Below are positions 611 to 61,870 of a stretch of DNA of 61,870 nucleotides, in pieces. The position numbers and the translations under genes are program-made. Within the stretch, counting starts at the first letter, position 1. The number at the start of each line of letters is the position of its first letter. The notes under the pieces were generated by a model that was not told the origin of the DNA, ran no database searches, and saw only the letters and a list, made by a program, of their open reading frames with translations. This stretch comes from a virus (taxonomy: Duplodnaviria > Caudoviricetes): IMG/VR virus record IMGVR_UViG_3300042885_000276, positions 1 to 61,870 of that record; one strand, written 5' to 3'.

Positions 611-637
611 ATTCGTTTTCTGTTTTTGGTTATGGTT

Positions 638-698: not shown

Positions 699-983
699 TC
701 ACATTCTTTCATTGCATACAAGGCGCGGAGAGTAGCCTTCCCCATCGTCATAAAATGACTGCAATTCAGCGTAAAGGTTCTCTAACTCGCCGGATTCATT
801 TTCAATCAGCATGTAGCCGCTTTCAAGAAAGCCAGCGTTACAAGCTCCGCCGAAAACGTAGCGATCTCCACGAATGAGCATCACTTCAAAATCGTGAAAC
901 TCTCCACGCTTGTCTTCTATTTCAAGGGTTCCCAGGTGCTCTGCTTTGCTTATGTCTGAAACTTGCCATTTTGATTCGTGCAT
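699..983 (-). CDS. Early acidic hypothetical protein (MHESKWQ...)
   Basis: ATG at 983 after an AAACCAAAAACAAAAAG leader; stop codon abuts the ribozyme. Confidence 0.7.
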   Translation of the reverse strand: MHESKWQVSDISKAEHLGTLEIEDKRGEFHDFEVMLIRGDRYVFGGACNAGFLESGYMLIENESGELENLYAELQSFYDDGEGYSPRLVCNERM

Positions 984-3250: not shown

Positions 3251-3282
3251 ATTCCGTCCGTTTGTGTGTGATGTTTACCGCA

Positions 3283-25727: not shown

Positions 25728-26203
25728 ATATGGAACCAAACATGAAGCCTCGCATTGCCCTATTCAATGGCGATGGAGTGGTGTCCTGGCTTATCAAAAA
25801 GCAGACGCGCTCAAAGTATTCACATGCGGCGATGCTTATTCCAGGCACCACAAATCGCATTATTGAATCGCGAGAGTTCAAGGGCGTCAGACTCCACACT
25901 CTGGACGAATCAGATAACCGGTTGATCGACTGGTTTGCCATCCCAAGCATGAGTGATGAGGATTACGACTATGCTATCAGCTTGTTCTTGGGGCAGCTTG
26001 GAATGCCATACGACTACTGGAGCGTGGCTCGATTCGTCACCAAAAAGCCAGCGCGAGAGAATGGCAAATGGTTCTGCTCAGAGGCAGTTCACAAGATGCT
26101 AGCGGATGCCGGAACTCGTCTTCTTCTGCGCATTCCATCGGCAGAAGTTTCTCCTGCTCATTTAGGAATCTCACCACTACTTGTTCAAGTTGCCGCACCA
26201 TGA
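25724..26203 (+). CDS. Permuted papain-like NlpC/P60 enzyme (YiiX/YaeF, C92)
   Basis: YSHAAM...IIES...G.PYDY...WFCSE. Confidence 0.85.
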   Translation: MNMEPNMKPRIALFNGDGVVSWLIKKQTRSKYSHAAMLIPGTTNRIIESREFKGVRLHTLDESDNRLIDWFAIPSMSDEDYDYAISLFLGQLGMPYDYWSVARFVTKKPARENGKWFCSEAVHKMLADAGTRLLLRIPSAEVSPAHLGISPLLVQVAAP

Positions 26204-42117: not shown

Positions 42118-45100
42118 ATGGCTACTTGGCACGAGATTACACGCGATCCAGAATATCAAGAACTTTCCGAACAGGGAAAGGCTTTGGTTAAGCAGGGATT
42201 TTTTGAACGAGAAATATCCTCTGATCCTGAATTTAAAGCGTTCTCGCCACAGACACAAAAGGCTGTTTTTGATGACTTTTGGCAAACTCCAGACGATTCG
42301 GGTCAAGGAATAGTTACCTCCACACTCGGAAGTGCTGCCCGTGGATTCGGTGAAATTGTTCCAGGCACATTGGAAGGTGTTGGCGCTCTGACCGGCATCA
42401 CACCTATCAGCGATCTTGGCGAATCTGCTCGCGAAGGGCTGGAATACATTGCGCCAGTCAATCCAATTTACGAGCAAGGCATTCCTGCCAAAGTGGCAAA
42501 TGTGGCTGGTAATGTGGCTAGCATCATCGGCACAAGCGGCGTTGGTGGACTTGCTGGTAAAGCTCTAGGTGCTGAGCGTGCTGCCGCTGCTGGTTCTGCT
42601 GCTGCTAGGCAAGCTCTCACAAATCAAGCCATTCAAGCTGGTGCTAAATCTGCCCTATACGGCACAGGGTTTGCTCAAGGCGCTGCTGCTAAAGCTGCCG
42701 AAAATGAGCGTCTTGGCATCACTGGCGCTGAAGGGTATTTGAATCTTCTTGGCGGTGGCATATCTGAGCTTGCCCCAGAAATGCTTCCATTCGGCTCTGC
42801 GCTTGAAACGTCTGCCGCCCGTCGCTTGCTTGGAGGAGTTGATGATGCTGCTGGTAGAGTAATTCCAGGTATCCGCATGAGCGCAGCGCAAGAAGCTGCC
42901 GAAGGTGGTTCCACGCAAGTTCTCAGTAATCTCTCAACTCAGCTTACTGCTCCCACTGGCGTTGAAGCTCCAGGTTTGTTTGAGGGCGCTGGTGAAGCTG
43001 CTCTTTGGGAGGGCGTTGGTGGCGCAATGTTTGGCGCGATCAACAAACTTGGCCGAACACCTCCAGAGAGGCAGACTGACATCCAAAAAGCGTTCGTTGC
43101 GGAAGATAATGTGGATGCTGTTGATAAAGTTCCAGATCAGACAGACGACGAAAAGCTCGTCAACATGAACGCTGGCGGCACCACAGTGGTTGATCCACAG
43201 GGGAAAACAGCGGTTATTGCGCCACCAGCGCCAAAGACTCCAAGCCAAGTCATCGCTGAAAATCTGGCAACGGCTGCTGAAAATACATCCAACGATGCCA
43301 GTAAAGCTGTTGCAGCGGCGAGGGCTGTGACGCAACAAGTTACCACAACAAATGAGCCGATCACTCAAGAAGCCTTACCGCCAGAGCCGGAGATTCGACA
43401 GGACATGCAGGAATCACGGCAGTTGCCCTTGGTGCCAGAGCAACCGCTTGCACAAGAACCACAAGCGCCCGTTGAGTTGCCAGTTCCAACTGTTGAGCCT
43501 ACCGTAGAAACGCCAATCCAAAATCCAGCAGAAATTCATCGAAATCGCAATGCAGAATCTGAATCGTATATAGTGAGGGATGCCGAAGGGTTTGCCGACC
43601 GAAAAGCAACCAGGGAGGTGGTTGAGGTGGCTGCTAAAGCTGCGGGAATGACTGTGGATGAATGGGCGGCAGATCAGGCAGCCAAAAACATCAAGGCTAA
43701 TAAAGATTTCTTCGATGCCCTGAACGATGGGGACACTTTGGAGTGGATCGACAACAACGGGAGAAAAGGAACTGGACGCGTAGAAATCGGATTGGATGGA
43801 GAGAAAACGGTGCGCAATACCACCGAAGGTTCTCCCTCAGAAGACTACCAGTACACAAATCGGTCTGGCATTTTCGCCCAAGTTGCGGATTCCTTGAAGA
43901 TCACACCCAAAAGAAAAGAAGCCGCCCCCGCAACCGAAGCCCCCGCCCCCACTGCCGAAACTCTTGGTGTCACAGCGCCACCGGCCCCGACGCTGGAAAC
44001 CCCCGAAGGCGCGGCACGCAACGCCGACATGCTCCGTCAAGCCCAAGCCCGTTTGGCTGGCACCGAGCAAGGCCCGCGCATCGGCTTTCTCCAACCTTCA
44101 GAAGTTGCTCCCGCAACCGAAGCCCCACCAATCACTCCTACCAAGGAGACGCCGACGCCCGCTACCGAAGGCACGGTCATGCCGGGAGGCAGCGCCATGG
44201 AGCGGGATGTGACTAAGCCGGAGCAGATGACGCCGGAGGAACACTTGAACGCTTGGAATCAATTAAACATTGATGCTCAAAAAGCGAGGGAAAAGGCAAA
44301 CGCTGCTAAAGCGAAATTGCTTCCTAAAAATCCTGCGTCGCAAATTAGGCAAATGGAGAAAAACGCCAAACTAGAGCAAGAAGCAATTACTCTAGAAAAT
44401 TTGAGAGATGAATTTCCTCCAACTCCTAGTTTTGCAATTGAGAATGCGGTAAAAGAAGGAAAGCCATTCTCGGTAGATCTCCATAAAGCATCAGGATATG
44501 CCTATATTCCCTCTGGCTACACCCGCCAAGGCGACCTCTACGTATTCCAACCGGGGGTAACTGGCGAATTAGTTCAGGTAGCGCCTTCTGCTGCACAGGC
44601 CGTGACGAAGCCAGCTACAGTCAAATCTACAGAGTTGCGAGTTGGTGATGAAGTGTCGTTCAAGGGAAATACATACCGTGTAAAGAGCAAGTTACTTGAT
44701 GGCAGAGTTCGAGCCGAGTTCACAAATCCAGAAGGCATCGCCAAACTTCCAGCGGGTTCTGTTAACATCACAACCCTACCTCGTAACGTCAATCTCACAC
44801 GCATTGAAAAACCATCTCCCCAAACCACAACGGTAGCCACACCAACAGAAACCGCCGCTCCCTTGGCTAAGGAAGCGGCGGTAGCCAGTGTTGTTCAACA
44901 ACCAGCAGAGGGGTCGATCCCTGCTGTTGAGCAAGAATCTGCTATAACTCCCATAGAGTCAAATGAAAAAGCGGACATTGCAGATGCCGCAATGGCATTC
45001 TTGGAAGAGGATTTGACCGAGAGCAAAAGGCAATGGAGTCCAGAAAAGATCGCTGCTGCAAAAGCCTACTTCGCTAGCGGTGGCAAAGACATGGATGTGC

Positions 45101-48100
45101 TTCGTGCTGCATTTCCCAAACTCGTTGGCTCTCGTCCGATTGTTCAAGCCTATCTCAAGGCTGATAAGGAAGCGTCAGAAGCTCAAGCTAAGCGTGATGC
45201 AGCCGATGCTAAGCTCGCCAAAGAAATCGAGCGTGACGAGAAGGAGCAAGCCAAAGCAGAAGAGGCACAAAGGAAACGTGAAGAGCTAAACATTAAGACG
45301 CTCAACTCGCTCATTCAGAAAACGCGCACGAACGTCGTTCAAGGCACCGTCAAGCCAACCGATGCCAATCAAGCTGTCGCGATTCTCAACAGTTCAGGCG
45401 AGATTCCAAATGTGCTATTCACCTGGATTGGCACCTCAAAGGACTTCCTTGCTGATCCTGCGAATCGCGTTCGTTATCCTGAGACTTGGAAAGCCATCAG
45501 TAGTAATCCGAACATTGAGGGAGCGTCTGATAATGGACAGCCGATTGTCTTCACGGACAACATTGGCGTATCCGATCTTGACCGTAAGCTAGCCAATCTT
45601 CAAGGCACTACGCCAGAAGTGGCGGCAGTTCGTCGCGTCATCCTTCATGAGAACATCCATAAAGGCATATTCTTCTTATCAAAGAAGGAGAAGATGCAGA
45701 TCTTCTCGTTATTGCGCCGGATGTACTCTCCAGAGGAGCTTGATTCGCTTGCTAAGTCCTATAGCAAATACTCTGACTGGCGCACGAATCGAGATAACTA
45801 TTTCAGCTTATTAGAAGAAGCGATGATTCGTGACTTCGACTCAATGGCGGAAATTCCGCGTGATGGCATTTGGGCAGAGTTCATGCAATTTCTGCGTGGC
45901 ATCTGGCAGAAGATCACTGGCAAGACGAGCGAGCCTACGCTAAAGGACTACAAGGATGTTTTCCGCTTGATTCGCAATAGCCTGAAGAACTCGGAGAAGG
46001 CTAATGCTGACATGCTGGTGAATGGTGGTGGCGTGCGGATTGGCATTGCATCCAAAGTCGAATACGATTCCCCAAACGATGCCGCATTCAACAGTGGCGC
46101 TGAAGTAGCTCGCAACACTGATTACGACGAACGCGACAAGGAAGTGCGTTCTACTATTCGTGCAGCATACGATATTGCTCCGAAGACAAATGGCCCATCG
46201 GTGCCGCTAGACGAGCTTTTCAGCATCGTGCAGCAGTCGATGCCTGATCTGACGGAAACCGAGTTCAGCCGTATCTTGCAAGGGCTGTATGAGGACAGTG
46301 GGGCACTGTTGATTGAAGGTGAGGTTGCTCCATCCTATACTTCAGAAGAAGAGGCTAGACATGCCGAACTTGAGGCCAAGTTCAACGCTGGCACCATCAC
46401 GCCAGAAGATACGGCAGAGGCGCAGGCTTTGGTGGATGAACGGGCGAAGGCGGCGGGGTATGATGGCGGTATAGTGTGGCATGGAGATCGTAATGAGGAG
46501 TTTGTAGATAATTACTCTCCATTTACCGAGCCTAAGATTCCATTTTTTACAACACCATCAAAAAAATCCGCTAGTTGGTATGGAAATCCTCGCTCATATT
46601 ACAGCAAAAAAAGTAAAGTTGCTGGAATATCTGATATTTTCAATGCGGCTAACGCGCTTGGTATTACCAAAGATAAATCCGATCCATATTATGAATTTTG
46701 GCCTGAAATAAAAAAATATTCAGAATACGATGGGGTTAACGATAATGATCTTGTTTATGTTCCGTCTATCCGAGAAGAGTTGGTAAAACGTGGATTCACA
46801 AGAGTCCGAGTTTTGGATCAGTTAGAGAATCAAGAAATAACTGCTGATATTTTTATTGATTCACCCTCTCAAATCAAATCCGCAGACCCATTCACAGGAG
46901 TCCCACTCAACCAGCGTTTCGATACTGGTAACGATATTCGCGGCAACATCAACACCTTCACCACCGAAGGCGAACGCGCTGGATCTGTCATCGTTATGCC
47001 ACCGTCTGGATTCCAGACAAGAGCGATGGCGTCAATGATTGATCCTAAAGACGCTGCAACCAAACAGTTCGCGAAGAATATTAAGGACATCAACAGTGGC
47101 ACAGCTAAGGCTGCATTCGACGGCGTGCAGTTTGTTGACTTCGAGCCAGTTGATCACATTGTTAAGCCAAACAAGTCATACGAAAAGATAGCCATTGACT
47201 ATGTAGATGGACTTCTTGGTGAGGGTAAATCCATTGAGGATATTGCCACATCTATTATGACTCCTATGTTCTTCGATAGCATTGGTATCAGCAATGATGT
47301 CAAGGCTCGTCAGGCTCTCACATCAGAAGTTCTTCGTCGCGTCACCGATCTAAACGGCCTATCTAATACTCGTCTAGCATCCAAGCGATTACAGAAGTTG
47401 GAAGACTTAATCAGTGCATTCTGGCAAGGTCTTGGAACTGAGAGCGGTGGAAACCAAGGCCAGCGTGCTTTCATTATCGGAAGCCCTCGTTATTCATGGA
47501 TGTTTTTGAAGGACTCCGTGAAGAAGGAGATGAAGGAACGCCGAAACAACATTCTCACTGTTCAGTTTGGCAATAATAACGCTACCAGCTTCACTCAGAA
47601 CTCGTATGAGAATGCGGATAAGGCTTCCACCATGTCTGCGGATGAGATTGCCAGTGACATTGAAGACTTCAAGATTGATCAAGATTTGCTCGATGGAGAG
47701 GCAACACTAACTGGCAAACTTGCGAAGATGTATGAAGAGTTGAAGGACTTACTTCGTGAGAATGGAATCTTGGCTCGACTTGACGCTCAAGAAAACATCA
47801 CGGCAAAAGCATCTATTTCACCAGCGCGGAGAGAGGAACTTGCTGCTTTGAGCAAGGATGAGCGTGCAAAATTGCGCGACAAAAACAATAAGCGCATTGA
47901 GCAAATCCTGAACACTCTACTTGGAAAAGAAGAGGATGCCGATACGACAGAGAAAAAGACCGTGCGTAAGAAGCGTGAGAAGATGGTCGATGCTGTGAAG
48001 AAGCGCGTTGAGCAGGGTAAACCTATTGAGCCTACTGACTACGTTCCAATCATCACCGAGAATCCACAACGCGATGAGATTATTGATGATGTTTCTAATG

Positions 48101-51100
48101 CTTTGCTACAAGCGGCAAAGAAGCGCGGAGTCAAGCCTTCTCAAAAAACCGCATTGGCAGACTTAGTTGCCAGTATCAAATCTCTGCTCAAGAGGAATAT
48201 AAAAGGTGAAGATTTAAAAGCTGACGAAGCTCCATTGGGTCAATTGCTGGCGAGGACATATCTCGACAACCTCACGGCAACTGAAGCTAAGTTGTTTACT
48301 GAAAGCTGGAATGATGGACGTAAAAAGGTTCGTGCTATGCTTACAGAGATGGGTGTTGAAGGCACTCAACTTGAGGCTGAACTGAATGCCATCATGCCAG
48401 CAACTCCAACGATTGCATACAATCCATCGGCAGTTCGCAAAGCAATCACACGCGCATTGCGTGAAGCCGGTCTTGATGCCAATGACCTTTTGGCTAACAC
48501 GCAGTCAGTTAAATCCGAAATTCTCAAAGTTTGGGATAATGCCGCTGTTGATGCTGGCTTAACACCTTCTGTTTGGCAAGAAGGGCGCAAACTTGCTGAG
48601 AAGTCTATTGATGAGTTTGTTATTGAGCGCAAGGCATCCAAGGAAAAGGCAAAGAAAATTGCCAAAGTGGTATCTGAGCAGGCTAACAATCCAGTTTCAC
48701 TAGCTGATTTCAGCAACTCACTGTCTCAATACAAACTCAATGATGGCAAGGTTAAAGAGCTTTTCGACAAAGCTAAAGTTCTTGCGAATAAGAAGGTTCA
48801 AATTGCCTACGACATGGCTGTTCGAGTCCTTCTTGTATCAGAGAATAATCTAGCTCAAAGCGCATTCTTTAATTCCGCCACCAAGCCAGACACCATCGTT
48901 AAGGCTTTCCGTCAGCAAGTGAGTGATCCAATGAGTCGTCAGGATTTCAAGGATCGCATGGAAGCAATGAAAGTCAGTGGAGAATTGGCCGATAGGCTTT
49001 TCGACAGGGCTGCTCGTGAAAAAGACAATGCACAGTGGAAGCGTGCTCAAGACATGCTTGAAGGGCCAAATGCTCTGCGTAACATTCTTCGCGAGATCAA
49101 TCGCGCACGTCCAGGTAATCAAGCGCCATTGTCTGAGCAGATTCCTTGGCGTCAGCTTCTTTCGCAAAGCTCAAAGACAGTTGAAGAATACCGCCAGCGT
49201 ATCCTTGACGCAATCTCTGCCAACGAATCACTCAAGAACGCAACGCCAGAGCAAAAGGCACGTCTCGCAGAACTATTCACTGAAGCATGGGAAACCAAGC
49301 GTAAACGCATTCTCGACAGCATGCAGGAGCGATTGATCCGTGAGCAAGAGGCAAAAGGTAATCTCAGCAAAAAAGCTGCTAAAGCTCTTCAGGAAAATCG
49401 CATGCGTATAGTTGAGGACATCAACCTTGGCATTTTCGACAACGATGAAATCGCGAAGATCATAGCTGAGAAATTCGGCATCAAGTCCGAGTTCACTGAT
49501 GAAGAGCGCCAGAAAATTGAGTCGCTGATTGCAATCTTGCAGGATGAAAAACTCAACCGCGTAAAGCGCAACAAAGCAGCTTACGAGTTGCTGGAAACGC
49601 TCAGCGCACAGACTGGTATTTCAATTGCTAAGTTGTTGGCAAACTTCTGGGTGTCTAGCGTGCTTTCTGGGATGAACACGGTGTTCTCTATCGGCATGTC
49701 TGTCTTTAGTGGTATGGGCGAGCTCACCACTGCCCTGTCTCGCATCTTTTCTGCTGCATTCTCAAATCCAAAACAGCTTTCGTCTGAAGTTGCAGCGGCA
49801 TTTAAGACTCTGGCAAGAGTAATATCTGCCGTCCCTCGTCAAGCCAACAGAGCTTGGCAATACCTCGTCACAGGAGATCAAGCATTCCTTGATCCATCTA
49901 TGAACGATGCGCTCAAAAACATGGATTACGCATCCATCGGTAAGAATAACCAGCTTGCTGAGCAGATGGCGAAGTCTGATAAGATTCTCGAAAAGAGCAT
50001 GGGTCTTTTCATGCGAACAGTTAGCCGACTACTTACCGCTCTCGATTTGTTTAATAGTGGACTCACCAAAGAAGGCTCGCTTTCTATTGTGTTCCGCCAG
50101 CTTGATCTTGATCCTGTTAAAATCCAAATGCTTGAGAAGAAGTCTGACTTGAAGGCATATAAGGATCAGGTGATTCGAGACTATTTCAACAATGTGCAGC
50201 CAAAAACTCTCAACGAAAAAGCACTCGTTGAATCCTACGCCATGGCTGAAATGATGAAGGCTCTGGATGAAATTGGCAACGTGTCTGAAAACGCTGACCA
50301 AATGGCAATGCAGGGTGCGATGACGCTCGATCCTTCTGGCCTTGGTGGATATGGCTACCGTTTCGTTAAATCAATGATGAAGAGTGCTGAATCTGGCACC
50401 GATAAATTGTTGGAACGAAACCTTCGCAAATGGGATGAGGCAGTCGGTGTAGATGAGAAAGCGGAAGCTGGCGTGAAGTTGGTTTTGTCTTATATCTTCC
50501 AATTCGCTGCCTACAACGCTGCAAACTTGGTAGGTGTCCGATTTGCTCGCTTCGCTGGTAACAAGTTCAACCAGAGTCTTAGCTTCTTGCCTTTAATTGG
50601 CGCTTTGAGGCTGTATGAGGCCGAGTTTGATTCTGACCGCATTCGTGGCAAGGAGGCGTTCACAGATATGATCAAGCGTAACCAACTCACGGGCGTAATT
50701 GCTGCTGTGATTGGATACTATGTTCTTAAAGCTATCGCAGAAGAACCGGATGATGAGAAGCGAGGCGCATTCATCAATGGTGGTTGGAGCAACTTGACCC
50801 CAGAAAAGAAACAGCAAAAGATAGCTTCTGGACAAAAAGAATACACGCTTGGCTTTGGGGATACGGTGATCAATTATGGCAACTGGCCTGGATCTGGCAT
50901 CCTAGCAGCCATCGGTGGATTATCAGATTTGATCCGCTTCTCGCCTGACCAATGGAATGATAAGACTGTTGCCAACAAACTACTGTCTGCAACCACGTCT
51001 GGCGTGTTTTCAGCTATGGAAGTTCCAGCCCTGTCTCAGTTCCAAGAACTGTTTGGTAGTAGCTTGTCCAGCAAAGATCCGAATGAGCAAAAGCTCACAA

Positions 51101-51630
51101 AATTTGCTCGCGTCATAGGAAACTATGTGGGCGGTTTCGTTCCTCGTATCCTCAAAGATATTGATTATATATCCGATCCAAACTTCAGGAAATACGAAAC
51201 GCTGTGGGAGAAAACAGCCTCGCACATCCCTGTTTATCGTCGTTACGAAGGCAAGGAGTACTACGACATCTTGGGCCAGCAAATCCAACGCAATGTGTAT
51301 CCTGGAAGCCGCGAGTTCATGGTGAAGCCAACTGATCCAGCCTATAAGGTTCTCGGCGCTCTCAATTCCCGTGGAATCTGGCTGACTCCTGCTAATGCTG
51401 AACACCGCATGGTTGGCAAGGGCGCTCGTCGTCGCTCCCTCACGCAGGAAGAAGCTGACAACTACAGCCTTGAAACCGGCAAAGGCTATAAGCAGATGCT
51501 TCTGCGATACGGTCAGCGTGCGCTCCAGATGCCCACAGAACGCGCCAAAGCATTCTTGTTGGACAAAGCTGACGAAGTGCGCGACAGGGCGCTCAAGAAG
51601 GTCTATAGGGGCTATCAACCTGCAACGTGA
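42118..51630 (+). CDS. Giant ejection/polyvalent protein with zincin HExxH and ADP-ribosyltransferase-like (ART-PolyVal) domains
   Basis: 3170 aa; G/A-rich N-terminus; ILHENIH at ~45640; AKAAGY..VWHG..FFT..A..YG..QIKSADP..RFD at ~46440-46930. Confidence 0.8.
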   Translation: MATWHEITRDPEYQELSEQGKALVKQGFFEREISSDPEFKAFSPQTQKAVFDDFWQTPDDSGQGIVTSTLGSAARGFGEIVPGTLEGVGALTGITPISDLGESAREGLEYIAPVNPIYEQGIPAKVANVAGNVASIIGTSGVGGLAGKALGAERAAAAGSAAARQALTNQAIQAGAKSALYGTGFAQGAAAKAAENERLGITGAEGYLNLLGGGISELAPEMLPFGSALETSAARRLLGGVDDAAGRVIPGIRMSAAQEAAEGGSTQVLSNLSTQLTAPTGVEAPGLFEGAGEAALWEGVGGAMFGAINKLGRTPPERQTDIQKAFVAEDNVDAVDKVPDQTDDEKLVNMNAGGTTVVDPQGKTAVIAPPAPKTPSQVIAENLATAAENTSNDASKAVAAARAVTQQVTTTNEPITQEALPPEPEIRQDMQESRQLPLVPEQPLAQEPQAPVELPVPTVEPTVETPIQNPAEIHRNRNAESESYIVRDAEGFADRKATREVVEVAAKAAGMTVDEWAADQAAKNIKANKDFFDALNDGDTLEWIDNNGRKGTGRVEIGLDGEKTVRNTTEGSPSEDYQYTNRSGIFAQVADSLKITPKRKEAAPATEAPAPTAETLGVTAPPAPTLETPEGAARNADMLRQAQARLAGTEQGPRIGFLQPSEVAPATEAPPITPTKETPTPATEGTVMPGGSAMERDVTKPEQMTPEEHLNAWNQLNIDAQKAREKANAAKAKLLPKNPASQIRQMEKNAKLEQEAITLENLRDEFPPTPSFAIENAVKEGKPFSVDLHKASGYAYIPSGYTRQGDLYVFQPGVTGELVQVAPSAAQAVTKPATVKSTELRVGDEVSFKGNTYRVKSKLLDGRVRAEFTNPEGIAKLPAGSVNITTLPRNVNLTRIEKPSPQTTTVATPTETAAPLAKEAAVASVVQQPAEGSIPAVEQESAITPIESNEKADIADAAMAFLEEDLTESKRQWSPEKIAAAKAYFASGGKDMDVLRAAFPKLVGSRPIVQAYLKADKEASEAQAKRDAADAKLAKEIERDEKEQAKAEEAQRKREELNIKTLNSLIQKTRTNVVQGTVKPTDANQAVAILNSSGEIPNVLFTWIGTSKDFLADPANRVRYPETWKAISSNPNIEGASDNGQPIVFTDNIGVSDLDRKLANLQGTTPEVAAVRRVILHENIHKGIFFLSKKEKMQIFSLLRRMYSPEELDSLAKSYSKYSDWRTNRDNYFSLLEEAMIRDFDSMAEIPRDGIWAEFMQFLRGIWQKITGKTSEPTLKDYKDVFRLIRNSLKNSEKANADMLVNGGGVRIGIASKVEYDSPNDAAFNSGAEVARNTDYDERDKEVRSTIRAAYDIAPKTNGPSVPLDELFSIVQQSMPDLTETEFSRILQGLYEDSGALLIEGEVAPSYTSEEEARHAELEAKFNAGTITPEDTAEAQALVDERAKAAGYDGGIVWHGDRNEEFVDNYSPFTEPKIPFFTTPSKKSASWYGNPRSYYSKKSKVAGISDIFNAANALGITKDKSDPYYEFWPEIKKYSEYDGVNDNDLVYVPSIREELVKRGFTRVRVLDQLENQEITADIFIDSPSQIKSADPFTGVPLNQRFDTGNDIRGNINTFTTEGERAGSVIVMPPSGFQTRAMASMIDPKDAATKQFAKNIKDINSGTAKAAFDGVQFVDFEPVDHIVKPNKSYEKIAIDYVDGLLGEGKSIEDIATSIMTPMFFDSIGISNDVKARQALTSEVLRRVTDLNGLSNTRLASKRLQKLEDLISAFWQGLGTESGGNQGQRAFIIGSPRYSWMFLKDSVKKEMKERRNNILTVQFGNNNATSFTQNSYENADKASTMSADEIASDIEDFKIDQDLLDGEATLTGKLAKMYEELKDLLRENGILARLDAQENITAKASISPARREELAALSKDERAKLRDKNNKRIEQILNTLLGKEEDADTTEKKTVRKKREKMVDAVKKRVEQGKPIEPTDYVPIITENPQRDEIIDDVSNALLQAAKKRGVKPSQKTALADLVASIKSLLKRNIKGEDLKADEAPLGQLLARTYLDNLTATEAKLFTESWNDGRKKVRAMLTEMGVEGTQLEAELNAIMPATPTIAYNPSAVRKAITRALREAGLDANDLLANTQSVKSEILKVWDNAAVDAGLTPSVWQEGRKLAEKSIDEFVIERKASKEKAKKIAKVVSEQANNPVSLADFSNSLSQYKLNDGKVKELFDKAKVLANKKVQIAYDMAVRVLLVSENNLAQSAFFNSATKPDTIVKAFRQQVSDPMSRQDFKDRMEAMKVSGELADRLFDRAAREKDNAQWKRAQDMLEGPNALRNILREINRARPGNQAPLSEQIPWRQLLSQSSKTVEEYRQRILDAISANESLKNATPEQKARLAELFTEAWETKRKRILDSMQERLIREQEAKGNLSKKAAKALQENRMRIVEDINLGIFDNDEIAKIIAEKFGIKSEFTDEERQKIESLIAILQDEKLNRVKRNKAAYELLETLSAQTGISIAKLLANFWVSSVLSGMNTVFSIGMSVFSGMGELTTALSRIFSAAFSNPKQLSSEVAAAFKTLARVISAVPRQANRAWQYLVTGDQAFLDPSMNDALKNMDYASIGKNNQLAEQMAKSDKILEKSMGLFMRTVSRLLTALDLFNSGLTKEGSLSIVFRQLDLDPVKIQMLEKKSDLKAYKDQVIRDYFNNVQPKTLNEKALVESYAMAEMMKALDEIGNVSENADQMAMQGAMTLDPSGLGGYGYRFVKSMMKSAESGTDKLLERNLRKWDEAVGVDEKAEAGVKLVLSYIFQFAAYNAANLVGVRFARFAGNKFNQSLSFLPLIGALRLYEAEFDSDRIRGKEAFTDMIKRNQLTGVIAAVIGYYVLKAIAEEPDDEKRGAFINGGWSNLTPEKKQQKIASGQKEYTLGFGDTVINYGNWPGSGILAAIGGLSDLIRFSPDQWNDKTVANKLLSATTSGVFSAMEVPALSQFQELFGSSLSSKDPNEQKLTKFARVIGNYVGGFVPRILKDIDYISDPNFRKYETLWEKTASHIPVYRRYEGKEYYDILGQQIQRNVYPGSREFMVKPTDPAYKVLGALNSRGIWLTPANAEHRMVGKGARRRSLTQEEADNYSLETGKGYKQMLLRYGQRALQMPTERAKAFLLDKADEVRDRALKKVYRGYQPAT

Positions 51631-52271
51631 TGCAAGAACTCATTCGCAAGAACACCATCCCAAAGGAATTCAACCACGCGAAGCTGCGTGAGCTATTTCC
51701 AACGGCTATCATCACTGGCGATACATACGGCTTCTTCTACCACGTTGAAGCTACAAACACGGTATTCGTCAGATACGGCTGGCGTGATCTAGCGAAATCC
51801 GTTCAAGAGCACCTGGAGGGAAATGGCATTGAGATTCCAGCGAATCTTGGCCTTATCATGCAGGAGGCATTCTGCCAGCATCGTCCTGATTTATGCGTTG
51901 ATCGCGATCCTGACAGCGAGGCAAAGATTGGAGCATTTCAGATGATGAAGCGGTTCTACAATTCTGCCGTGAAGCCCTACCTTGCTGGACAGCTTGTGGA
52001 TCAAGAGGAGGCTAATCGAAGAGCGGCTATTTGTGCGACCTGCCCGAAGAACACGGACAAAATTGTGGAGTTCTGCGTTAGTTGCTCAACTCGTAGCCTT
52101 GTTGGGCATATCAACCAGTTCTTGACGAGTCGGCATACGCCTAGCGATCCTCTGTTGAAGAACTGCGCCGTGTGCCATTGCCTACTGCCAATGAAAATAT
52201 GGATAAGAAAAGATGATATGGACGAGCCTGAGCTTCGTGAAAAGTGGCCTGAGCACTGTTGGATGAAGTAG
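51627..52271 (+). CDS. Cys-rich hypothetical protein
   Basis: EANRRAAICATCPKN, CVSC, CAVCHC.L..K, CW. Confidence 0.75.
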   Translation: MMQELIRKNTIPKEFNHAKLRELFPTAIITGDTYGFFYHVEATNTVFVRYGWRDLAKSVQEHLEGNGIEIPANLGLIMQEAFCQHRPDLCVDRDPDSEAKIGAFQMMKRFYNSAVKPYLAGQLVDQEEANRRAAICATCPKNTDKIVEFCVSCSTRSLVGHINQFLTSRHTPSDPLLKNCAVCHCLLPMKIWIRKDDMDEPELREKWPEHCWMK

Positions 52272-52559
52272 TTAAAATTCCGCTGGAGTATTCGCTTGAT
52301 TGTCAGTCGGACAAAATTGTAGTTCATCTAGCATATCAGAAGGTTCGGCCTTCCCGTTTGCCATTGCTTCAATCCAGCGTGCAGGGTCAATGGTTGCTGT
52401 ATGCTTCCATCCAACATCCAACATCGCAGATTCAAACTGGCAGATTTCGTCAGCGGATAAGCATTTAATCACTCCGTTAAGCGCATAGACAAAAAGCATC
52501 CGGCCCAACAAGGTTTCTGATGAAACACTGACAACATCGTTCTTGGATTTGGTATTCAT
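52272..52559 (-). CDS. Cassette gene D, hypothetical
   Basis: 95 aa; starts inside attC 52503-52589. Confidence 0.7.
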   Translation of the reverse strand: MNTKSKNDVVSVSSETLLGRMLFVYALNGVIKCLSADEICQFESAMLDVGWKHTATIDPARWIEAMANGKAEPSDMLDELQFCPTDNQANTPAEF

Positions 52560-52589
52560 TCGCGGTGAGTCTACACTTGATTGTTTGGC
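52503..52589 (+). mobile_element. Degenerate attC site
   Basis: GCCCAAC-aaggt...ttgatt-GTTTGGC; L boxes eroded. Confidence 0.55.
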
Positions 52590-52858
52590 ACAAAATAAGA
52601 CACGACTTCTAGCCCGTCATCGCGCCAATCTTGAGCAATGTCTTTTTGATCGGTCACAAACTCCTCGTCTCCTACCGTGCATTTCCACTCTTTTCGCTGA
52701 GACATTAGAGATTCGATCTGTGTCGCAGCATCTGCCATTATTGCAGATATTTCATCCGCGTAAGGTGTCCATCCAGAACGAAGAAGCCGAACGAGGCGCT
52801 GCATGGAATGCCGAGGGGCATCCTGCGCGAGTCCAGGCGTTAATTGGTCGGCATCCAT
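52571..52858 (-). CDS. Cassette gene C, hypothetical
   Basis: 95 aa; N-terminal ...MQRLVR and C-terminal PNNQV are attC-encoded. Confidence 0.7.
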   Translation of the reverse strand: MDADQLTPGLAQDAPRHSMQRLVRLLRSGWTPYADEISAIMADAATQIESLMSQRKEWKCTVGDEEFVTDQKDIAQDWRDDGLEVVSYFVPNNQV

Positions 52859-52875
52859 GAGCTTATGCGTTCTCC
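52786..52875 (+). mobile_element. Canonical integron attC site
   Basis: R'' GCCGAAC-5nt-L'' GCTGCATG-gaATGCCGA..TCGGCATc-L' CATGAGC-6nt-R' GTTCTCC; two extrahelical bases on the R''/L'' arm. Confidence 0.9.
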
Positions 52876-53180
52876 GTTGGACGCATCCGGCGGTTGATCG
52901 CGTTGATTAGACGCAGGTGATTGCTTTGGGATTTATCGACAGCATATCCCAACGTGTCGATCACATGCGTCAGGTTTGCCGCAAGGCGCTGGAACTCTTT
53001 GAGCATCAGCCGGACATCTTCCACATGCACGGCTTCAACCTCGCCACCGTGAACGGGATCAATCAGCCGTTGAGTGATTTCATCCAACTTGAACGGAGAA
53101 CAAAACGATGGACGACGACACCCACCAGTCTGCTGCGGTTGAAAGGGTTTTGGCTTCGGCGTGGATTTCTTCTTGGGCAT
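52863..53180 (-). CDS. Cassette gene B, hypothetical
   Basis: 105 aa; start inside attC 53095-53226, stop inside attC 52786-52875. Confidence 0.7.
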   Translation of the reverse strand: MPKKKSTPKPKPFQPQQTGGCRRPSFCSPFKLDEITQRLIDPVHGGEVEAVHVEDVRLMLKEFQRLAANLTHVIDTLGYAVDKSQSNHLRLINAINRRMRPTENA

Positions 53181-53226
53181 AGCGTGGGGTGGTTAGTGGT
53201 GGGCGCTCGTCATCTTATCGTTCGGC
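53095..53226 (+). mobile_element. Integron attC site
   Basis: R'' GGAGAAC-5nt-L'' GATGGACG..CACCCACCA..TGGTGGGCG..L' CGTCATC-5nt-R' GTTCGGC. Confidence 0.85.
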
Positions 53227-53414
53227 AGCACAATCTTTCTCCAATGCGTTGCGTGATCATATCCACGGTCATACGCACCCTCCCAGATGTCATCGCCATC
53301 AGACCAATCTACATCGCCGTATTTGTTGGCGTCTTCTTTGGTTGGCAGGCGATCATCAACTAGAACCCATGAGAGTTCGAGTAGAATCTTTTGCAGTTCA
53401 TCAATGGTTTTCAT
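53193..53414 (-). CDS. Cassette gene A, DUF551-like small protein
   Basis: WVLVDDRLP...ATHWR; C-terminal LPNDKMT is attC-encoded. Confidence 0.7.
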   Translation of the reverse strand: MKTIDELQKILLELSWVLVDDRLPTKEDANKYGDVDWSDGDDIWEGAYDRGYDHATHWRKIVLPNDKMTSAHH

Positions 53415-53427
53415 ATTCGGTATCTAA

Positions 53428-53997
53428 CTATACGTCCGTTTTTGGTTGAGATGCAAGTGGGATTTTTCTTTTTGGTCTTTCACTCACAGGAACAGGAAAT
53501 GCTGTTTGTGTCTTATTTATAATAAATGAAAGCGTCCCTTTGCTGCTCAATCCAAACTCAATCATGGTTTTATTGAATCCATTCTCTTTATAGTATTCAA
53601 TAATTTTTACATGATCGTGTTTCATGGCATGCCTAGAAGTTGCAAATGCGTGAGCATGTCTAGCTTCAGCAGGTCGATCCATCATGTTTTGTGATGATGT
53701 TCCAGGTATGATATTATCAATGTGATTATTCAATGAGTTTCCATCTAGGTGGCGGCATACGATATTAGGCTGGTAGATTTCATCGCCAAATTTAAACCAA
53801 GCATTGAAGCGGTGAACAAGGCACTTACAACGCTTTGTTTTTGGGCCGAATGAAAACACTCGATAACCATTACTTAGTGATTGACCAACAATCGAACCGT
53901 CTGGTTTTGTGATTGTTTTGCCATCAGGTGTTATGCGGAATCCCATGTTGGCAGCTAATTCCTCATTTCTGTTTGGTGTATAGAATGGTTTTTTCAT
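53428..53997 (-). CDS. HNH endonuclease (HNH_3-type)
   Basis: LVHRF...VCRHLDGNSLNNHIDNI...SQNMMD. Confidence 0.85.
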   Translation of the reverse strand: MKKPFYTPNRNEELAANMGFRITPDGKTITKPDGSIVGQSLSNGYRVFSFGPKTKRCKCLVHRFNAWFKFGDEIYQPNIVCRHLDGNSLNNHIDNIIPGTSSQNMMDRPAEARHAHAFATSRHAMKHDHVKIIEYYKENGFNKTMIEFGLSSKGTLSFIINKTQTAFPVPVSERPKRKIPLASQPKTDV

Positions 53998-53998
53998 A

Positions 53999-55366
53999 TT
54001 ACTCATTTTCTCTTGCTGGATCAAAGCGGAAGAACCTTCCATTGAGCGTTGCCTTAACGATTTTCAGCCTCTCTCCATTTCTATTCTTCTTGATAAAAAG
54101 GTTCCTCTCGTAATTCGGCTCATCCTCTTTCTTTTTCTCCCATGCCTTTGCCTGCTTCTCAAAGGGCTTTTGGATGATTATCAAATTGTCTGAATCTTGC
54201 TCGATGGCTCGCGACTCGCGAACCTTTCCATCCTCATTAAGCTGTGACGGCATGATGATGTGAGCGCCAGTCATTTTAGCACACTGCTTTGCTGTGGCCG
54301 TGATATGGGCAACTTCTCGCTCACGGTTTCCACCATTGGTTTTAGATGTCAGGCAGAGTTGAATGTAATCAATGGAGGCCACTAATTTCTGCCCCTGCTT
54401 TAATCGCTTTGAGCGCCTAGCAATATCTCGGCAGATTTGTTCAATGGTCTTGCCAGCGACATCCACGATGGAAATCGGCCACTTGGATAGACGCATCGTT
54501 TTGACGCCAATGCTTTGATGCTCAACACGAGTCAGCATCCCATGTTTCAAATTACTAGAATCAATACCGGCTTGTGAGCAAATCAACCTTCCAGCCTCTT
54601 CTGTGTCTCGCATCTCGTAGGTGTAGATCACGCCAACATGATCCTGAAGGCATGCGGATTCCACAAATTGACGAGCAAGGCAGCTTTTACCGTCACTGGA
54701 TTCACCAGCGATAACAGTTAGTCGTCCATCTTCCAGACCACCAAGGTATTTATCGAAACCAGCAAACCCAGTGGAGATGCCTGGAATCTTGCCTGGATTG
54801 GCGCAACGCTCCTCAATTCCATTCAAAACGTCTGTTAAAAGCTCTCCAATTTGACGACATGGCAAATCTGCGCTGGAATCATCGTTTACAGCCTCACAGA
54901 CGAGCTTGGTGACGTGCTGGATGGCATCAGTAGCGGAAACACCATCGGCCTCTTGAAACGCCTGCAAATGGGCAATACCAGCAGCCATGGCACCGATCAT
55001 CTGGCGGAACGCAAATTTGTCCCGCAAGATGGTTAGGTAATACTGATAATTTGAAGCAGACGGAATCAGTGTGAAAAGCTCACTGATGAACGCAGGTCCA
55101 CCAACGATAGTCAGCTTATTCGCATTTCTGAGAGCATGAGTGAGTGAGATTTGATCAATCGGCTTACCTGCTGCGAATAGACCGATAATTGTTGTGAGGA
55201 TGATACGATTTGCCTCATGATACATGATCTCGGCATGAGGCGCTTCATCACACAGCGATGGTCGTTGAAGCAAGCATGAGAGGATCGCTTGCTCCGTATC
55301 ATCGTCATACGGAAGCTGTTTGTTGAGAGAGGCTAGAAGATCCTCGGTTGTTGGTGGTTGTGTCAT
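53999..55366 (-). CDS. dnaB: Replicative DNA helicase
   Basis: EQAILSCLL, GISTGF..FD, AGESSDGKS, IDYIQL, SQLN, RESRAIEQDSD, KNRNG. Confidence 0.95.
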   Translation of the reverse strand: MTQPPTTEDLLASLNKQLPYDDDTEQAILSCLLQRPSLCDEAPHAEIMYHEANRIILTTIIGLFAAGKPIDQISLTHALRNANKLTIVGGPAFISELFTLIPSASNYQYYLTILRDKFAFRQMIGAMAAGIAHLQAFQEADGVSATDAIQHVTKLVCEAVNDDSSADLPCRQIGELLTDVLNGIEERCANPGKIPGISTGFAGFDKYLGGLEDGRLTVIAGESSDGKSCLARQFVESACLQDHVGVIYTYEMRDTEEAGRLICSQAGIDSSNLKHGMLTRVEHQSIGVKTMRLSKWPISIVDVAGKTIEQICRDIARRSKRLKQGQKLVASIDYIQLCLTSKTNGGNREREVAHITATAKQCAKMTGAHIIMPSQLNEDGKVRESRAIEQDSDNLIIIQKPFEKQAKAWEKKKEDEPNYERNLFIKKNRNGERLKIVKATLNGRFFRFDPARENE

Positions 55367-56169
55367 TGTTGTTTCTGAGCCTCCACGATAATCTTCGGCC
55401 AATTTTGGCAAAAGTCGAAAATTGTAGATGCCCTAACAAAAGCTGGGCAAAACTTGTCTTTTGATCGCTCCCAGCACCAAGAAACAATGTGGATCAGTTC
55501 TTGGATGTCTTTATCACAGATGCGGAGGAATCCTTGAAGCTGCTTGGCATCCTTTGGCTGGAAATAGTACTTTTCACCAAATGTCTTGATGTAGCCATCT
55601 GAATAGGCGGTGATGAATGGATGGAATCTGGGGTCTGCCGGAAGTGAAGGTCTGCCACGCCTTTTGGGTATTGGCATTGAAGAATTAAGCCTCAAAACCT
55701 CTCCGGCATTTATTGCCGGTAATGGTGTATTCTCTGATGTACTCTCTGTACATATAGTAGTTTGGCTAAAACAGCCTTCCAAGTTTGGCGTTTTTGTGCA
55801 TTCCAGTATGGCGCTTTCCGCCATACTGAGGGAATTAATTTTGGCAATATATGTCAGTTTAGCCTCTAAAGCACTCAAGTTGAGACGATAATAAAGCTGC
55901 GCTGGAATCCCAATTAATTTCTCCTCCCAGCAACCTAAATCCTTGAGATTTCTCCTAGCACTCTCCTGCTCACGTCGAGAGAGACACGTCTCCTCTTCCC
56001 ACTCTGCTTGAGTTTTATAAAACCATCCACCAGGGTCTTTTGTTCGACTGCTCCAGTAAAATGCCTGACTAAGCATCACACCAGCATTGACTGATCCTGC
56101 CATTTTTGCAAAAATTCGGTGGTATGCAATTGGCCTGTCTAAAAGTTGGATAAAAAGAGATTGATTCAT
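55363..56169 (-). CDS. Replication initiator (lambda O-like) containing the origin
   Basis: HTH N-terminus (GWFYKTQAEWEEETCLSRREQESAR), iteron-bearing linker, coupled to dnaB; ATG at 56169. Confidence 0.8.
   Translation of the reverse strand: MNQSLFIQLLDRPIAYHRIFAKMAGSVNAGVMLSQAFYWSSRTKDPGGWFYKTQAEWEEETCLSRREQESARRNLKDLGCWEEKLIGIPAQLYYRLNLSALEAKLTYIAKINSLSMAESAILECTKTPNLEGCFSQTTICTESTSENTPLPAINAGEVLRLNSSMPIPKRRGRPSLPADPRFHPFITAYSDGYIKTFGEKYYFQPKDAKQLQGFLRICDKDIQELIHIVSWCWERSKDKFCPAFVRASTIFDFCQNWPKIIVEAQKQQ
55759..55863. repeat. Putative origin iterons
   Basis: AGT(T/A)TGGC at 55759, 55782, 55805 (23-bp spacing), variants at 55838 and 55856; palindrome CAGTATGGCG-N5-CGCCATACTG at 55804-55828. 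Confidence 0.65.
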
Positions 56170-56171
56170 AA

Positions 56172-56334
56172 AAACAAAAAGGCCGCTCAGGTTGCTCCCC
56201 CGGTTGCGGCCCGGTTTTACCCGGCGAGGAAGCGGCCTGAACGGCCAATGATTGATAAAGCATCTGGTTCTATATGGACGCAACTCCCAAGAACTTCGAC
56301 ACACCAACGCTACTGCATCAAAAAATACAGTCAA
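56172..56334 (-). promoter_or_regulatory. Promoter plus C4/CI-like structured attenuator before the replication genes
   Basis: TTGACT-N16-TAGCGT; GTTGCG site; branched stem 56181-56246 exposing CGCAAC, then U-tract. Confidence 0.5.
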
Positions 56335-56340
56335 CAAAAA

Positions 56341-61619: not shown

Positions 61620-61870
61620 GTGATTTTATCCAGCCACGCTGGCGTACCCGTCTCGCGCCTCCTGTGCGTACTCGTTAGCGTACCATTCCCAACATTCCGG
61701 CCCGCTCTCAGGCCAACAGCGCCTTGCTTTTTCGTACTCACGTTCCAGATTGCAGACGTGTCTAATCCTCTCGGCTCCACGCAGGTTTCAATCGTTTTCA
61801 TGTTGCTTTTAGTTTGGTTTCTCGGCGCATAATCGCGCCCTCTTGCCATCTTGGCGGCTGGCGATGCCGC
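61620..61870. repeat. Terminal direct repeat, right copy
   Basis: Matches 1-252 with one C missing. Confidence 0.97.

Follow-up and report, generated by a model that had tools for sequence, protein, structure and literature searches.

Genome and gene order

The window, by which we mean the whole stretch of 61,870 nucleotides that was analysed, is a complete phage genome of about 61.6 kb from lake water (CheckV 100%), with positions 1-252 repeating positions 61620-61870 at 99.6% identity as a terminal redundancy. A first-pass annotation of this DNA had proposed an integron-type cassette array without an integrase. Neither the integron integrase model TIGR02249 nor Phage_integrase (PF00589) matched anywhere in the whole record, as that annotation had it, and because the record is complete by its terminal repeats and its CheckV value, the absence of intI is real. 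The DNA of the region 51600-55500 had no match in the deposited phage collection.

The four small minus-strand genes of the proposed array are present as ORFs at 52272-52559, 52571-52858, 52863-53180 and 53193-53414, separated by gaps of only 11, 4 and 12 nt. Upstream of them in the same operon are a DnaB helicase (53999-55411, minus strand) and an HNH endonuclease (53428-54042, minus strand), both with Pfam and PHROGs matches. Gene D (53193-53414, minus strand, 73 aa) is the conserved gene preceding the array, and its C-terminal tail past an Asn codon, AAC, varies with whichever cassette comes next. Gene A (52272-52559, minus strand, 95 aa) is the conserved final gene of the array and was found in every related locus that reaches that far, with some relatives inserting more genes after it. 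Between them are two cassettes on the minus strand. Cassette C (52870-53220, 351 bp) has predicted attC crossovers at both ends and carries gene C (ORF 52863-53180, 105 aa), the final two codons and stop of which fall within the next cassette. Cassette B (52584-52869, 286 bp) is located between attC site 1 and an eroded site, and carries gene B (ORF 52571-52858, 95 aa).

None of genes A, B, C and D had a significant match in Pfam or PHROGs, the DUF551 match of gene D being weak (E 0.054). In the protein atlas the best scores were 0.83 for B and 0.78 for C, the structure matches of C were under the bar, and no function could be named. Gene C had no relative in the viral contig collection. The distal end of the array (52254-52267, minus strand) lies within the 3' end of a convergent gene (51627-52271) and carries CATCCAACAGTG, which resembles AACAGTGAT, an attI-like word found beside intI in other contigs; the resemblance is weak, since the 7-mer AACAGTG is present six times on that strand of the window.

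Candidate attC sites

attC site 1 (52786-52875, plus strand) has its R'' box at 52786-52792 and its R' box at 52869-52875, with the predicted G|TT crossover between 52869 and 52870. It reads as previously described, with GCCGAAC, 5 nt and GCTGCATG on one side and CATGAGC, 6 nt and GTTCTCC on the other. attC site 2 (53095-53226, plus strand; R'' 53095-53101, R' 53220-53226, predicted crossover between 53220 and 53221) runs from GGAGAAC to GTTCGGC and had been called nearly canonical, a description that our analysis bears out. In both sites the inverted outer boxes R'' and R' hold AAC and GTT cores. The sequence preceding gene A (52503-52589, plus strand), annotated as an eroded site, retains the boxes GCCCAAC and GTTTGGC and has no stem, so that the boxes of that proposal stand and the hairpin does not. 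A half site proposed at about 52285-52308 was not supported by any test.

The candidate sites are 87-100% within ORFs, with a narrower figure of 91-96% also obtained, which is atypical for attC. Within attC site 1, gene C stops and gene B begins (start codon at 52858), the first 24 codons of B lying inside the site. attC site 2 takes in the final nine codons of gene D with its stop, and gene C begins there (53180), its first 28 codons lying inside the site.

When the whole 61.9-kb window was scanned on both strands for anchored stems, only two physical sites scored at least 9, 52786-52875 (score 11) and 53095-53226 (12/9.5), and these alone show the complete attC architecture. Among 300 dinucleotide shuffles, 18 had any match of 11 or more, a mean of 0.09 per window. 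We then scored the window with R2, a covariance model trained on elements of other contigs without any window sequence. On the minus strand, R2 found attC site 1 with 88.8 bits (E 9.2e-21) exactly at 52786-52875. It placed attC site 2, which has no sequence relative in the training set, exactly at 53095-53226 with 38.2 bits (E 1.5e-7). The eroded site was aligned exactly at 52503-52589 with a score that is not significant (10.2 bits, E 3). R2 was bootstrapped from elements chosen by our own scanner and by a model called R1, and its E-values are rough. R1, which was made from B-type elements only, did not find the site at 53095-53226 at E up to 10, whereas the broader R2 did.

R2, built from phage-contig elements, is a proxy for the curated attC model of IntegronFinder/HattCI, the check that the first-pass annotation had put forward. 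Besides matching both sites of the window, it recognizes canonical class 1 attC sites: in the class 1 integron L073 it found four of four, on the bottom strand, with 29.0, 25.7, 25.6 and 17.4 bits (E 4e-5 to 0.04). The scanner detects the L073 sites as well; relative to the genes, their longer arm is on the other side.

Simpler measures did not separate the sites from background. For DNA folding energies of single sequences, the two good sites had z-scores of -1.0 to -1.6, within the shuffle range, and the eroded site had -0.24/+0.22; across both strands of the three claimed sites the range was -1.57 to +0.50, not significant. Thermodynamic stability is thus not the signal. A loose R/L-box grammar matched five sites in the window and 3.56 +/- 1.98 in 110 shuffles, four of which had a close same-strand pair, so that this grammar discriminates poorly. 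The left-box word of attC sites is RYYYAAC. The box word GTTRRRY is quoted in a survey of phage integron components (PMC9892861), and only one of the six R boxes tested fits these strict words. Boxes that depart from them are found in the class 1 control too (for example GTTACTT and TTCTAAC). At position 4 of the box, G is found mostly on the left and C mostly on the right, as in GCCGAAC and GTTCGGC. An Rfam search of the window at gathering thresholds returned no attC family. The sole Rfam match was a hammerhead ribozyme elsewhere in the window.

A CALIN is defined as at least two attC sites with no nearby intI (Cury et al. 2016, NAR, PMC4889954). The window has two sites 220 nt apart and no intI in the record. 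The intI and attI beside the array that mark a complete integron are not present in the window.

Architecture of elements in related loci

Across 62 viral loci the gene strand carried 88 non-overlapping elements with a score of at least 9, and only three scan matches were confined to the other strand; many of these loci possibly trace back to a single lake campaign, and they are not independent. Among 42 sequence-distinct elements, the 5' arm has no bulge in 41, and the 3' arm has two or three bulged bases in 38, fixed at 9-10 and 16-17 nt from the GTT box. The spacers between R and L are 4-6 nt and unpaired. AAC and GTT cores occur in all 42 by construction of the scan, and are confirmed by the model alignment. 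The stem of attC site 1 has 15 pairs, which are 99.2% paired among 17 variants; both sides have changed in six pairs, and in none is there a one-sided change. The class 1 control shows the same one-arm bulge asymmetry on its bottom strand.

Complementarity of cassette ends

Two matches between cassette ends that had been reported from the sequence hold. GTTCTCCGTT (52869-52878) and AACGGAGAAC (53092-53101) are exact reverse complements of each other, and GTTTGGC (52583-52589) pairs with GCCGAAC (52786-52792) at six of seven positions. The end boxes of cassette C, GTTCTCC and GGAGAAC, are thus complementary over 7/7 positions, or 10/10 with the adjoining bases, and those of cassette B over 6/7.

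The same relationship holds in the related arrays. In 23 of 35 non-redundant cassettes the right box of one element is the perfect complement of the left box of the next; a perfect match between the two boxes within a single element is limited to 3 of 56. The cassette ends agree at 113 of 140 positions in total, a value that none of 5000 permutations reached. Most of the 12 imperfect pairs among the 35 span long intervals in which the model later found weaker elements.

Gene turnover and breakpoints

The interval from gene D to gene A has at least ten gene arrangements in about 24 related viral loci, and the flanks are about 90-100% identical among loci with differing arrangements. Gene B is present in some relatives and absent from others, and cassette C is absent from all related loci. 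The comparison suggested by the first-pass annotation supports its proposal: relatives show gene swaps, and their breakpoints are at the AAC/GTT core of R'. The sequence AAC-GCATAAGCTC-ATG leading into gene B is preceded by six different upstream genes, each of which abuts attC site 1 at AAC. After the AAC of gene D there are seven different tails, six of which diverge right past AACG. Since AACG is common to both sides of the junctions, they do not resolve the exact phosphodiester bond of the crossover. Not every junction is clean; the B|A and D|A junctions differ in the 5 nt past AAC.

In other lake-water runs, contig branch points or loose ends occur at 52871 and 53219, and one also at 52790. 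The assembled contigs of four runs contained no joints and no circle junction. Rare forms are invisible in assemblies, and since only assembled contigs were covered, the lack of a circle junction in them is not evidence against excision.

Integron integrases in other contigs and a possible link to hosts

The five nearer relatives of this phage (56-67 kb) also had no integrase in our search, so that any recombination here needs a helper, and none was observed. In distantly related viral contigs (L067 and L069-L072), intI and an attI-like word are present together with one common attC type. The protein encoded at L067:4524-5516 scores 329.4 bits on TIGR02249 (cut-off 265), and the closest protein of solved structure is VchIntIA (2a3v, full-length match, E 8.8e-61). 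Its gene directly follows a five-element array. A truncated IntI remnant adjoins another array, and a conserved attI-like word adjoins intI or its remnant in six of six loci examined. The association of this attC type with IntI is one of adjacency in these other contigs. A tyrosine integrase in a further viral genome (G004, locus L063) was not counted as IntI; it lies about 9 kb from the array and its best matches are to XerD/XerC-type models. A peptide-pattern search of genome contigs for the phage-type IntI gave no close relative.

Six MAG contigs carry the same attC type, four of them from PVC phyla; four of the six are only 1.2-3.1 kb long and are possibly misbinned phage DNA. The Lentisphaerae contig CAISWQ010000016.1 (L077/L089) is 130.9 kb long and has a site of this attC type (R2 68.2 bits) located 1.3 kb from an IntI of 358.8 bits, in the geometry seen in the phage contigs; an attI-like word accompanies the IntI there too. 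An IntI beside the same attC type in both viral and Lentisphaerae contigs fits the proposal of a PVC-group IntI acting in trans, whose source may be the host or a co-infecting phage with its own IntI. The common attC type suggests a path along which cassettes may pass between phages and bacterial chromosomes. It also provides a testable host link to the Lentisphaerae, Verrucomicrobiota and Kiritimatiellae, for which few phages are known to us.

Cassette cargo

We scanned 18 cassette ORFs of related arrays. Eight match DNA-modification families (Dam, Mom, C5, N4/N6 and MT-A70), two of them weakly, one below and one at the Pfam cut-off, and ten had no match. If this pattern holds, integron cassettes would supply phages with an interchangeable anti-restriction kit. 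Such a kit would mirror the defence-system cassettes that have been reported in bacterial integrons.

Interpretation

Early tests argued against an integron, since the sites are coding, fold no better than shuffled sequence and have no integrase; the comparative data reversed this assessment. We consider it highly probable that the replication operon ends in a CALIN, an array of integron-type cassettes that lacks an integrase of its own, and that its cassettes are exchanged by an IntI supplied in trans. Two intact attC sites and one eroded site would delimit the cassettes. The gene-sense strand, which is the minus strand of the window, would be the attC bottom strand and would fold into an imperfect hairpin, with the crossover falling between A and C of the 5' AAC, that is, at G|TT on the plus strand. 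An integron integrase from elsewhere would excise and insert cassettes at this point, and could come from a PVC-group host with a chromosomal integron or from a co-infecting phage that bears one. We infer that the enzyme at work on this phage is IntI, and cassette turnover is probably ongoing in this lineage.

The cassette ORFs would be on the bottom strand, with translation running through the attC sites, and AAC would usually encode Asn in the frame of the upstream ORF. The next cassette would then give that ORF a short tail and a stop, along with its own start codon in the hairpin loop. With tail, stop and start supplied in this way, the array could stay gap-free and be read from the phage operon. 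Such an architecture would allow attC hairpins to fit into phage genomes that are coded without gaps.

The initial reading was that these are chance inverted repeats in tightly packed phage accessory genes. It drew on the coding position of the sites, the fold z-scores, loose-grammar counts near shuffle level, and our own arithmetic, by which 1.1 kb should contain about 0.6 inverted matches of 10 nt. Scores from a model that had seen none of this sequence and the comparative breakpoints refute this reading, and the window scan with its shuffles, the permutations of the cassette ends, the fixed bulges and the stem covariation also speak against it; its likelihood is now close to negligible. The elements could instead be structured linkers, hairpins whose function is in the RNA, as translational coupling or attenuation of packed genes, and which are shuffled by recombination of similar linkers, as described for the promoter-stem-loop cassettes of T4-type phages. 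They are transcribed within the operon, each covers the upstream stop together with the start and first codons of the next gene, and the start codon of B is within the stem. A role in RNA leaves unexplained the two-base bulge asymmetry, the AAC/GTT cores, the complementary cassette ends and the adjacent IntI and attI-like word, and does not account for R2 detecting the bottom strand of class 1 attC sites too. Most of the elements are moreover unrelated in sequence. Sigma-70-like sites, the one promoter type scanned, numbered five in 5 kb, compared with 6.8 in shuffles, and none is in 52272-53430. We regard linkers of this kind as very improbable.

The array might also be a relic, built by IntI in an ancestor or donor and now inert, its variation being due to homologous recombination of co-infecting phages across conserved flanks. 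This would suit the missing intI of the window and of the five nearer relatives, the eroded site, and the contigs without joints or circle forms, and genes D and A offer homology at both sides. It is difficult to reconcile with at least ten arrangements between such similar flanks, with AAC breakpoints that join sequence-unrelated elements and give homologous recombination nothing to pair, and with the full architecture and compensatory stem changes kept in both intact sites. A relic therefore seems improbable to us, if less so than linkers. Under the preferred reading of a CALIN served in trans, phage populations preserve here a natural record of how cassettes turn over, the breakpoints falling at the recombination core.

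A broader proposal, to which we lean only slightly, is that of a phage-adapted integron in which the following features belong together. The attC sites would be fully translated, with in-frame splicing at the Asn codon AAC, and the array would be read from the phage operon towards intI. PVC chromosomal integrons and several unrelated phage lineages of lakes would draw on one cassette pool, rich in DNA-modifying (anti-restriction) enzymes. Some of the lineages, with genomes of about 40 kb, would encode an IntI clade of their own; others, such as this 61.6-kb phage, would be without an integrase and dependent on IntI in trans.

Comparison with known systems

Integrons are known as gene-capture devices of bacteria. 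In the class 1 control, ORFs are on the top strand, upstream of mostly non-coding attC sites. In the phage arrays, by contrast, ORFs are on the bottom strand, start within one attC site, end in the next and are read towards intI. The Lentisphaerae contig is similar to the phage arrays in that a bottom-strand cassette ORF starts inside attC and reads towards intI, and in having complementary cassette ends. It differs in its bacterial context (GC content 0.58-0.69, and 60 kb examined without a further match to a phage protein), and in a second cassette ORF on the top strand. The two IntI proteins, that of this contig and that of the phage contig, share only 44% identity.

PeSL (promoter-early stem-loop) cassettes in the hyperplastic regions of T4-type phages also have small accessory genes between repeated structured elements, which mediate modular shuffling. 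The elements described here differ in having no promoter-like sites, in being unrelated in sequence while sharing attC architecture, and in their association with an integron integrase. Several features agree with canonical integrons as described in PMC4889954, namely R and L boxes, unpaired spacers, a variable loop, extrahelical bases on one arm and chimeric sites. An intI that diverges from the top-strand direction of attC, with attI beside it, is likewise canonical.

The closest precedent is a 2023 survey in Front Microbiol (PMC9892861) of 10,705 NCBI phage genomes, which used predictions and an E. coli assay; before that year integron components are not known to have been reported in phages. 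It described attC clusters without intI in virulent phages, and five of six phage attC sites recombined with attI1 under IntI1 in that assay. Those phages and ours have in common at least two attC sites without intI, a proposed access to the cassette pool, and DNA methyltransferases among the cargo. The nearest IntI in the deposited phage collection is about 41-42% identical to the phage-type IntI of our contigs. Cassette gain and loss at G|TT in natural populations, translated attC sites and bottom-strand ORFs are not found in the available sections of that survey, and phage arrays of translated attC sites with genes on the bottom strand did not turn up in the parts of the wider literature accessible to us. 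Phage attC clusters without an integrase are already published; what appears to be new here is that the attC sites are translated, that the genes are on the bottom strand and that natural turnover is visible.

Genome and array position

The window spans an entire IMG/VR virus record (61,870 bases), rated 100% complete by CheckV, and positions 1-252 and 61620-61870 form a 252-nt direct repeat of 99.6% identity, which supports a complete genome that is terminally redundant or circularly permuted. The record is nevertheless classed as linear and free of end repeats. The array stands at the end of a minus-strand replication operon whose genes have family matches to an O-like initiator (55363-56337), DnaB (53999-55411), and an HNH endonuclease (53428-54042). 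Four small minus-strand ORFs follow, D (53193-53414), C (52863-53180), B (52571-52858), and A (52272-52559), separated by gaps of 12, 4, and 11 nt, and the A end meets a convergent late-strand gene (51627-52271). No significant match to a Pfam or PHROGs family was found for A, B, C, or D.

Several features of the surroundings were also recorded. The HNH endonuclease is free-standing and its gene shares 44 nt with the end of dnaB; an unrelated ORF of 179 or 167 aa occupies its slot in many relatives (L018-L025 and others). Some relatives (L007:3000-3470; L009 and L010:5422-5867) have a dnaB broken between alignment residues ~31 and 15 by about 450-470 nt, perhaps an intein, intron, or mobile insertion. 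Within a variant of the initiator gene (L001:4339-4391, L002, L003, L007) lies a 53-nt hairpin with GAAAAAC and GTTTTTC at its ends, which recurs where the initiator is 77% identical to that of the window; this hairpin may represent an origin-type structure and not an attC. The late strand ends with a single 3170-aa ORF (42118-51630, plus strand), the C-terminal 500 residues of which are 73% to 99% identical among otherwise close relatives. Among the small minus-strand genes at the left genome end, positions 637-699 (minus strand) match the type II hammerhead ribozyme (38.5 bits, Rfam gathering score 37).

attC-type sites in the window

The first-pass annotation had proposed an integron cassette array with attC sites at 52786-52875 and 53095-53226, an eroded site at 52503-52589, and a half site at about 52285-52308. 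Initial tests spoke against this proposal. The three longer sites overlap ORFs over 87-96% of their length and the half site lies wholly within one, their fold energies fall within the range of shuffled sequences (z -1.57 to +0.50), only one of six R boxes fits the strict consensus words, and a loose R/L-box grammar gave 5 sites in the window against 3.6 expected. Neither an integron integrase nor any gene of the Phage_integrase family was found in the record. A chance origin was rated probable after these tests and was overturned by the comparative data.

A stricter scan accepted only elements of 50-150 nt in which an anchored imperfect stem is separated by a spacer of 4-6 nt on each side from xxxxAAC in front and GTTxxxx behind. 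Over both strands of the whole window, a score of at least 9 was reached only by 52786-52875 and 53095/53100-53226; in 300 dinucleotide shuffles of the window, 18 had any match at a score of at least 11. Two covariance models were made, R1 from B-type elements only (the attC-like site in front of gene B) and R2 from 39 elements of 11 other loci, with the window sequence excluded. R2 gave 88.8 bits for 52786-52875 and 38.2 bits for 53095-53226, with rough E-values of 9.2e-21 and 1.5e-7. The presence of these two attC-type sites, as first proposed, is confirmed. The eroded site was matched at exactly the coordinates first annotated, with a nonsignificant 10.2 bits (rough E-value 3), and neither it nor the half site is supported as a functional site. 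Far from the array, a 40-nt match at 25900-25939 (plus strand; R2 18.1 bits, rough E-value 0.025; R1 12.4 bits) is probably an unrelated hairpin.

Element architecture in related loci

Searches of a viral contig collection with DnaB, D, and B gathered 62 loci (444,530 nt). The strict scan gave 88 non-overlapping matches on the gene strand, with 49 distinct inner sequences among them, and only 3 matches that were restricted to the opposite strand. Architecture is constant in the 42 distinct elements that score at least 10, which are 87-135 nt long with spacers of 4-6 nt. The 5' arm is free of bulges in 41 of them, and in 38 the 3' arm carries two or three bulged bases, placed 9-10 and 16-17 nt away from the GTT box. 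The 15-pair stem of the B-type element is 99.2% paired across 17 variants, with six pairs changed in both partners and none in just one partner.

Cassette turnover and breakpoints

The interval from D to the convergent gene has at least ten different gene contents in relatives whose flanks are about 90-100% identical: D-A, D-B..., D-X72-B-A, D-B-x190-A, D-A with one additional gene, three long arrays containing other genes, and a D::B fusion. Gene C has no relatives in the viral contig collection and is unique to the window. The segment from AAC through the stop codon and spacer to the start codon of B was found after six different upstream genes. Seven different sequences follow the AAC near the end of D, six of them parting directly past AACG, and one tail is common to D in two loci and to an unrelated gene in a third. 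The downstream module thus provides the C-terminal tail and stop codon of the preceding gene. The junction is the complement of the G|TT named in the first-pass annotation, and the gene swaps it anticipated are borne out by sharp junctions at the AAC/GTT core.

Circularisable cassettes recombined at this core predict complementary ends, according to Cury et al. 2016 (PMC4889954). Of 35 non-redundant cases, 23 have a right-end GTTyyyy box perfectly complementary to the left xxxxAAC box of the element that follows, as against 3 of 56 for the two boxes of one element, and the total of 113 complementary positions in 140 was reached by none of 5000 permutations. Imperfect pairs mostly span long intervals, inside which the covariance model found weaker elements. 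In the window, the ends of cassette C (52870-53220, 351 bp) are complementary at 7/7 positions, or 10/10 with adjoining bases, and those of cassette B at 6/7.

The stretch is present in 24 lake-water metagenome runs. Loose ends in assembled contigs of four runs coincide with the two crossovers (52871 and 53219) and with the inner edge of the site at 52786-52875 (52790 and 52780). No joints were found in these contigs, although rare forms would escape assemblies.

In L039:2415-2912, D (residues 1-65) is fused in frame to B (residues 14-95) as one 165-aa ORF, which looks like a deletion within the B-type attC. Between A and the convergent gene of L003 (8565-9344; L029 is on the same contig) is a second ORF for an HNH-type endonuclease, of 259 aa, flanked by a duplicate of the 3' end of the convergent gene; in L038 the second HNH-type ORF is split in two.

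Translated elements and cassette cargo

In 32 of the 42 distinct elements, an upstream ORF of 40 codons or more has the AAC in its reading frame, and in all 42 the frame of the AAC ends within the element, with a tail of 1-22 codons before the stop. The start of the following ORF is usually in the loop or the first arm (B starts 17 nt into the element, C 46 nt), and GTT is an in-frame codon of that ORF in 20/42. A scan for one promoter type found no promoter-like sites within the elements.

Eight of 18 cassette ORFs from related arrays match DNA-modification families, namely Dam (one clear, one below cut-off), Mom, C5 methylase (three, one at cut-off), N4/N6 methylase, and MT-A70; the other ten have no match. 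Several cassette ORFs share a 23-residue leader encoded by the B-type attC. Outside the array, a 378-aa ORF of the window (3262-4398, plus strand) shows 40-52% identity with the C5-methyltransferase cassettes of L054 and L067.

Integrase

Ten larger related records were searched, and no tyrosine recombinase was found in the five nearest of them (56-67 kb). Three array-bearing records of 36-41 kb that are nearly complete have none either. Adjoining the array of one contig is a 146-aa remnant, with integron integrase as its best family. In another, G011, a five-element array is directly followed by a 331-aa protein that scores 329.4 bits against TIGR02249 (cut-off 265) and aligns over its full length to VchIntIA (2a3v; E 8.8e-61). 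The end box of the last G011 cassette is complementary to its own start, and the cassette abuts a conserved word running into the intI start codon; this word stands beside intI or an intI remnant in all six loci examined. The G011 integrase has thousands of metagenomic relatives, many of the closest on contigs of 39-44 kb, and among deposited phages the closest IntI has 41-42% identity. DnaB of the IntI-bearing contigs is distant from that of the window phage (25-35% identity), and yet the B-type element is nearly letter-for-letter the same in both.

The interpretation as an integron-type cassette array is supported. For the mechanism, we infer from adjacency in other genomes that IntI would be supplied in trans to the integrase-less phage.

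Relationship to bacterial integrons

The B-type stem pattern matches six MAG contigs, assigned to Kiritimatiellae, Verrucomicrobiota (two), Lentisphaerae, Rhodoferax, and Acidobacteria. Apart from the Lentisphaerae contig, these measure 1.2-3.1 kb or 17 kb and may have been misbinned. The Lentisphaerae contig (CAISWQ010000016.1) is 130.9 kb long with a GC content of 0.58-0.69, and no other phage-protein match was found within the 60 kb examined. An IntI scoring 358.8 bits is found 1.3 kb away from its B-type attC, with the geometry of the phage contigs, and the cassette ends there are complementary. A 321-aa cassette ORF with the B-type leader (L077:1513-2478, minus strand) is on the attC bottom strand and overlaps the 5' end of the 449-aa IntI ORF, which has a long N-terminal extension; a 190-aa cassette ORF with a signal-peptide-like start (L077:2465-3037, plus strand) is on the attC top strand.

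A class 1 integron on plasmid NZ_OW849085.1 (L073) served as control, and the strict scanner recovered all four of its known attC positions. On the gene strand of the control the longer arm is the 5' arm, and the phage elements show the reverse, so that the phage gene strand corresponds to the canonical bottom strand. The covariance models confirm this assignment: the best three R1 matches in the control are three known attC sites, all on the bottom strand, and R2 gave 29.0, 25.7, 25.6, and 17.4 bits for sites 1 to 4 (rough E-values 3.7e-5, 2.7e-4, 2.8e-4, and 0.038).

Qi et al. 2023 (PMC9892861) report integrons or CALINs in 21 of 10,705 NCBI phage genomes and recombination by IntI1 of five of six attC sites from virulent phages, so the kind of array is already known. 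What is new here is the uncultured lake phage lineage, the natural cassette turnover at G|TT, a cassette pool probably common to this lineage, a PVC-group bacterial integron, and IntI-bearing phage contigs, and the translated, bottom-strand cassette arrangement, of which no published account was found in the literature searched, supplements excepted. The attC-attI-intI geometry of the phage arrays is like that of canonical integrons, but their cassette ORFs are inverted.
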